Shown here piece after piece: positions 9,100 to 9,184 of a stretch of 64,000 nucleotides of DNA. Origin of the DNA: Escherichia coli (GTDB lineage Bacteria > Pseudomonadota > Gammaproteobacteria > Enterobacterales > Enterobacteriaceae). The translations under genes and the position numbers were made by a program. Within the stretch, counting starts at the first letter, position 1, and each line of letters begins with the position of its first letter. The notes beneath the pieces were generated by a model that saw nothing but the letters and a program-made list of their open reading frames with translations, searched no databases and was not told the origin of the DNA. The stretch is taken from assembly GCF_046105845.1 (NCBI RefSeq), contig NZ_CP151004.1; one strand, given 5' to 3'.

Positions 9100-9110
9100 A
9101 AATCGCTTTA

Positions 9111-9128
9111 CCTCAAGTTAACTTGAGG
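9111..9128. promoter_or_regulatory. SoxR operator in the soxS promoter
   Basis: Perfect palindrome cctcaagttaacttgagg in the divergent soxR-soxS spacer. Confidence 0.85.
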
Positions 9129-9184
9129 AATTATACTCCCCAACAGATGAATTAACGAACTGAACACTGAAAAGAGGCAGATTT

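Follow-up and report, generated by a model that had tools for sequence, protein, structure and literature searches.

The 85 bp between soxR and soxS contain a perfect palindrome, and the question that this locus raises is whether the palindrome is the operator through which SoxR controls both genes, or whether the symmetry has another origin. We analysed the region within a stretch of 64,000 nucleotides of Escherichia coli DNA (the window), which lies in reverse orientation relative to MG1655. The soxR start codon is the complement of 9097-9099 and the soxS ATG is at 9185, leaving an intergenic region of 85 bp by ORF coordinates (9100-9184) that holds two divergent, overlapping promoters. A preliminary description had reported a perfect 18-bp palindrome in this gap, and we found it at 9111-9128, where CCTCAAGTTAACTTGAGG forms an inverted repeat of 9+9 nucleotides without a gap (halves CCTCAAGTT and AACTTGAGG). 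[quoted passage not shown]

By itself, perfect symmetry over 18 bp is merely mildly unusual. Three perfect 18-bp palindromes were found in the window, compared to 0.28 expected from shuffles, and a quarter of the shuffles had at least one. These numbers lend something to the reading that the palindrome arose by chance, or is the site of another regulator (a MerR paralogue such as CueR, ZntR or MlrA), and lies between soxR and soxS coincidentally. Against this, the 18-mer agrees in every letter with the SoxR box as defined by experiment, and it matches the window only once when up to three mismatches are allowed (0.01 expected). The other two palindromes of the window have ordinary contexts of their own. 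One is a perfect 20-bp palindrome at 32620-32639, AGCCGGATGATCATCCGGCT, which is flanked by AAA and TTTTTT and lies between convergent ORFs (30013-32496, plus strand; 32651-33523, minus strand); it looks like an ordinary bidirectional intrinsic terminator. The other, ATTATTAAATTTAATAAT at 18034-18051, is a perfect 18-bp palindrome running across the stop codon of a 174-aa ORF (17517-18041, plus strand). This ORF had no match in Pfam or NCBIfam and is a hypothetical protein in RefSeq; it adjoins aphA (RefSeq annotation) and a class I/II aminotransferase gene (18263-19498, minus strand). The stretch 17000-18260 is AT-rich (33-38% GC vs 50% for the window) and is covered to at least 80% in 4325 of 5426 E. 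coli genomes, in most of them at just 90-99% identity. Rfam also placed a lysine riboswitch (RF00168, 99.5 bits; 52725-52921, plus strand) and the enterobacterial sRNA STnc430 (RF02053, 89 bits; 50682-50830, plus strand) in the window, both of which are expected in E. coli.

The genes on both sides of the palindrome could be identified at the level of equivalogs. The minus-strand gene (8635-9099) encodes SoxR, a MerR-family [2Fe-2S] redox sensor of 154 aa, which scored 248 bits against TIGR01950 (cut-off 117). On the opposite strand, 85 bp away, lies its divergent target soxS (9185-9508, plus strand; AraC/XylS family), whose product scored 228 bits against NF007584 (cut-off 174). Every score against the paralogous models (CueR, ZntR and MerR; Rob, RamA and MarA) was under the cut-off of that model, and SoxR of the window was far under those of CueR, ZntR and MerR. 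The compact divergent arrangement that had been proposed was thereby confirmed. SoxS is identical to K-12 SoxS (107/107), and SoxR matches its K-12 counterpart at 152 of 154 positions, the differences being I40V and G74R. SoxR also gave a full-length match to PDB 2ZHG/2ZHH (E = 4.6e-100). The duplex in 2ZHG presumably contains the same palindrome as 9111-9128. The cysteine motif of the cognate SoxR (CX2CXCX5C; C119-X2-C122-X-C124-X5-C130) is intact in the translation, and these [2Fe-2S] cysteines are given in PMC9909328.

The exact I40V/G74R protein is encoded on at least 1000 public contigs, so this natural allele is common in E. coli. Published clinical isolates carry G74R together with T38S; since one of these was fully levofloxacin-susceptible, G74R is probably a polymorphism of the lineage rather than a mutation conferring resistance. 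At its 3′ end, soxR overlaps by 8 nt with the convergent sRNA SraL/RyjA (Rfam RF01408, 153 bits; 8502-8642, plus strand), whose terminator-like element comprises a hairpin (8611-8641) and a T-rich tail behind it.

The position of the palindrome relative to the soxS promoter is more informative than its symmetry. On the plus strand, a -35 hexamer TTTACC (9107-9112; 4/6 to TTGACA) and a -10 hexamer TATACT (9132-9137; 5/6 to TATAAT), assigned from sequence and literature, bracket the box. They are separated by a 19-bp spacer (9113-9131), which is 2 bp over the optimum of 17 bp, and the combination TTTACC-N19-TATACT is unique in the window (9107-9137) versus none expected. The last two bases of the -35 hexamer are the first CC of the box, and 3 bp lie between the end of the box and the -10 hexamer. 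[quoted passage not shown] The wording that the palindrome occupies the 85-bp spacer, on the other hand, does not hold, as 18 of the 85 intergenic bases belong to the palindrome; the spacer that matters is that of the promoter, 19 bp long, of which 17 bases are filled. When the published soxS promoter was used for comparison, as had been suggested, the agreement extended from the letters of the 18-mer (PMC4411124) to the spacer, which is described as a '19-nt spacer' (PMC9303308).

Judged from promoter geometry alone, soxS transcription would start 5-9 nt past the -10 hexamer (9142-9146, plus strand), giving a leader of ~40 nt. A Shine-Dalgarno sequence AAGAGG (9172-9177, plus strand) is located 7 nt 5′ of the ATG at 9185, and its GAGG core is largely conserved in an alignment of enterobacterial soxR-soxS regions. 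A consensus sigma-70 scan of 8550-9600 on both strands, which allows spacers of 16-18 bp only, reported no promoter. This empty scan is no evidence against a promoter: the soxS promoter was missed because its 19-bp spacer exceeds the limit of the scan, and the soxR promoter because its -35 element is too weak for the threshold.

On the minus strand, a perfect TATAAT at 9130-9135 is the putative soxR -10 element, which overlaps the soxS -10 hexamer back to back. With 5-9 nt from this hexamer to the start site, soxR transcription would begin within the palindrome, at about 9121-9125. The candidate for the soxR -35 element is weak: TTCGTT (9154-9159, minus strand; 2/6), 18 bp upstream of TATAAT; when the alignment was read by eye, TTCGT (ACGAA on the plus strand) was kept in 9 of 13 enteric loci. 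Further downstream, 11 nt before the soxR ATG, GAGGT (9110-9114, minus strand) may serve as the soxR ribosome-binding site. It is the only Shine-Dalgarno-like sequence available to soxR and consists mostly of the promoter-distal arm of the palindrome (GAGG), and most enteric loci retain 11-12 nt between box and soxR start. In the passage of PMC4411124 that cites Hidalgo 1998, a single SoxR site is described with two effects: soxS is activated from it by oxidised SoxR, and soxR is repressed by reduced and oxidised SoxR alike, since the bound protein covers the soxR +1. The sequence of the window agrees with such redox-independent repression, as the minus-strand TATAAT would set the soxR +1 inside the box, matching the autorepression expected from the same site. 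The proposal of a SoxR operator in the preliminary description can accordingly be kept and extended: the same site also lies over the putative soxR start and would be the autorepression operator.

We then turned to the conservation of the region within E. coli. Of 5426 complete genomes, 5425 contain the soxR-soxS locus, annotated with soxR, soxS and pdeC, and the 85-bp intergenic region of the window is 100% identical to that of E. coli K-12 MG1655. Among the 5420 complete genomes in which it was matched, the 85-bp region is free of mismatches in 5380 (threshold of at least 99% identity, which over 85 bp means zero mismatches). Only 677 genomes, in contrast, reach 99% identity over the 951-bp soxR-soxS stretch, and the flanking genes differ by ~1-5% from those of most complete E. 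coli genomes. The difference between 5380 and 677 genomes indicates that the intergenic DNA is under more constraint than the surrounding coding sequence.

Over the first 25 kb of the window (1-25000), the best match among the 5426 complete genomes has 98.9% identity, and only one genome reaches 99%. The source therefore appears to belong to a lineage that the complete genomes cover poorly; among those closest over the soxRS stretch are the soil isolates VCSW5 and VCSW7 and strain 042. In the clinical E. coli E138 (NZ_AP022351.1, locus 1690-2570), the soxS promoter is interrupted by an IS1X4 element that sits between SoxR box and -10 hexamer and has a 9-bp target duplication, GAGGAATTA, corresponding to 9125-9133 of the window. 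Since the element parts the box and the -35 hexamer from the soxS -10, the sequence implies that soxS should be uncoupled from SoxR in this strain. A few plasmid-labelled records, for example NZ_CP048307.1, carry the full soxR-soxS locus with an identical box, as does the 452-kb IncHI2A Salmonella plasmid pPJT1-452kb; several PLSDB entries of multi-megabase length, though filed as plasmids, are clearly chromosomes or chromids.

To follow the site beyond E. coli, the pattern CCTCAAG-N4-CTTGAGG was scanned in one genome per species (298 Gb), which gave at least 120 loci. About 1100 matches are estimated to occur by chance over these 298 Gb, so that no genome-wide enrichment can be quoted. Among the matches listed, 27 of 121 exact boxes in other species were followed by a SoxR homologue at no more than 75 bp, and 12 of these 27 SoxR-linked loci also encode a divergent SoxS. 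The 12 loci belong to Citrobacter (2), E. albertii, Enterobacter (4), Superficieibacter, Klebsiella sp., Rosenbergiella and Pantoea (2). At the positions that the pattern leaves free, all 12 have CTTTA 5′ of the box, TTAA in its centre and AATTATACT on the 3′ side. When 13 enterobacterial soxR-soxS regions were aligned, 32 consecutive columns were invariant (9106-9137), of which 14 were fixed by the search pattern and 18 were free to vary. This footprint extends from one base 5′ of the -35 hexamer through the last base of the -10 hexamer and includes the minus-strand TATAAT; both soxS hexamers are invariant in the 13 loci, the flanks diverge, with divergence beginning right after the -10, and mean column identity over the whole alignment is 51%.

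The register of the -35 element is kept over a wider range. Among the matches listed, 82 of 120 scorable boxes carry TTGACC (68) or TTTACC (14) with the final CC formed by the first CC of the box, an arrangement estimated to occur by chance in ~1.6% of cases. Many of these boxes are Streptomyces sites away from soxR, and a SoxR regulon of multiple genes has been published for Streptomyces (PMC4146615), which fits boxes distant from soxR.

Because the pattern fixes the half-sites and thereby biases the sample, we added 16 loci that were chosen by protein only (tblastn of SoxR against plasmids and chromids). In 14 of the 16, a box with at most 3 mismatches in 14 positions was found 11-121 bp upstream of soxR. 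Sites as good as the observed box appeared in none of 300 shuffles for 12 loci, in 1 of 300 for one locus and in 6 of 300 for Prescottella. The dyads of Burkholderia and Ruegeria are degenerate but have the same geometry. Just 5′ of the box, all 16 best sites, the two degenerate ones included, have TTGA or TTTA (TTAA in Acinetobacter), and 14 of the 16 have, in the direction away from soxR, a hexamer beginning with TA that keeps the 19-bp offset. The -35/box/-10 geometry is thus found upstream of protein-chosen soxR homologues in Proteobacteria, Actinobacteria and Deinococcus. In non-enteric loci, soxR is divergent from an effector gene, which encodes a flavodoxin, MFS transporter, monooxygenase, or VOC or SDR protein. 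In Proteus mirabilis, the 18-mer is exactly that of E. coli, but the -35 is TTGACC. The survey restates what is known, namely that across phyla the SoxR box is preserved along with its geometry of a 19-bp spacer, and that enterics have an invariant version of their own with TTTACC, a TTAA centre and TATACT.

These data decide the question of coincidence. The 18-mer is invariant in the 5380 E. coli genomes and the 13 enteric loci, and across phyla the box co-occurs with soxR homologues in a fixed promoter geometry. The case for the operator stands on the position and conservation of the palindrome, and these cannot be chance. The reading as a chance palindrome or another regulator's site was rejected on its identity to the published box and on the conservation data, and we assign it a very small probability.

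An 18-bp palindrome could also act mainly as a hairpin in RNA or DNA, be it as terminator, as attenuator or by masking the ribosome-binding site in the soxR leader. The predicted RNA fold is a 7-bp stem with a UUAA loop, with -9.5 kcal/mol on the plus strand (z = -3.85) and about -9.1 to -9.6 kcal/mol on the minus strand (z = -1.6), and GAGG in its distal arm is placed 11 nt before the soxR AUG. However, the stem is not followed by a T-run on either strand, and the palindrome was not reported by a terminator scan. It also lies upstream of the putative soxS start, so it would be absent from soxS mRNA, and a soxR transcript driven by the minus-strand TATAAT (9135-9130) would have its 5′ end within the stem, which would split the hairpin. 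Moreover, conservation covers the -35 and -10 hexamers exactly. In other taxa, positions 7 and 12 of the box vary without compensation (G/G in Azospirillum; C/C in Deinococcus and Ralstonia), which favours protein recognition over base pairing, as does the preservation of the half-site sequence across phyla. Based on the missing T-run, the negative terminator scan and the non-compensatory variation, the hairpin or terminator was rejected as the main function, and we consider it very improbable.

A related possibility leaves the SoxR operator intact and adds a third duty to the palindrome, as its distal arm might also be the soxR ribosome-binding site. In longer transcripts the GAGG could then be masked in the 7-bp hairpin, so that soxR transcripts begun further upstream, for example within soxS, would hide their own ribosome-binding site. 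If true, such a triple-duty operator would be a translational layer holding SoxR levels low and constant. We regard this addition as unlikely.

Returning to the SoxR operator, it is almost certain that the palindrome is the SoxR homodimer operator inside the soxS promoter and serves both soxS activation and soxR autorepression, and none of the results obtained speaks against this. Sequence, geometry, gene identities, identity to the reference and conservation were computed here, binding, redox switching, DNA distortion and autorepression are taken from the literature, and the exact start sites, the soxR -35 and the soxR ribosome-binding site are predictions from the sequence. In the MerR family, a long spacer puts the -35 and -10 elements out of phase; the regulator stays bound, and activation kinks and untwists the DNA toward a spacing resembling 17 bp (PMC9909328, PMC8063818). 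The affinity of SoxR for DNA is similar in both redox states, and PDB 2ZHG is the complex of oxidised SoxR with DNA (same sources). Binding of the SoxR dimer is known for the identical K-12 sequence (PDB 2ZHG; EMSA literature).

Following this model, SoxR, whose gene lies on the opposite strand 11 bp from the dyad, would bind this site with its [2Fe-2S] clusters either reduced or oxidised. The 19-bp spacing, 2 bp past the optimum, would keep the -35 and -10 elements out of phase for sigma-70 and basal transcription low, and with reduced SoxR the soxS promoter would stay off. Redox-cycling compounds or superoxide would oxidise the SoxR clusters, and the oxidised, bound SoxR would kink and untwist the centre of the dyad (the TTAA step), so that the spacer is shortened and re-phased. 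RNA polymerase could then open the promoter and soxS would be transcribed, after which SoxS would turn on its regulon. As the same bound dimer would lie over the divergent soxR start, soxR would be repressed in both redox states.

The closest known system is that of K-12, which has the same 85 bp, 18-mer, -35, -10, 19-bp spacer and SoxS; the difference is the SoxR allele only (I40V and G74R in the window). The K-12 soxRS system has reportedly been worked out by Hidalgo & Demple (1994, 1997), Hidalgo et al. (1998) and Watanabe et al. (2008). The non-enteric 'soxbox' (Pseudomonas, Stenotrophomonas mfsA and the Streptomyces eca genes) shares the core CCTCAA-N6-TTGAGG, a -35 that overlaps the first two bases of the box, and the 19-bp spacer. 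It is also often divergent from soxR, doubling as the autorepression site. For the most part, it differs from the enteric version in a stronger -35 (TTGACC), a weaker -10 (TAnnnT) and four central nucleotides that vary. In addition, non-enteric SoxR directly controls effector genes, whereas its sole target in enterics is the regulator gene soxS. Other MerR-family operators (merT/MerR, copA/CueR, zntA/ZntR and bmr/BmrR) likewise have a long palindrome in a 19-20-bp spacer and are activated via DNA distortion with the regulator still bound (PMC9909328). They differ from the SoxR operator in that the latter has a SoxR-specific half-site and that its signal is the oxidation of [2Fe-2S], not a metal ion or drug.

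The palindrome at 9111-9128 is the textbook E. coli SoxR operator, whose sequence, structure and mechanism are already known. Its significance here is one of annotation and includes no new biology: the window carries an intact canonical soxRS redox switch, which is the entry to a regulon affecting oxidative-stress and multidrug tolerance.
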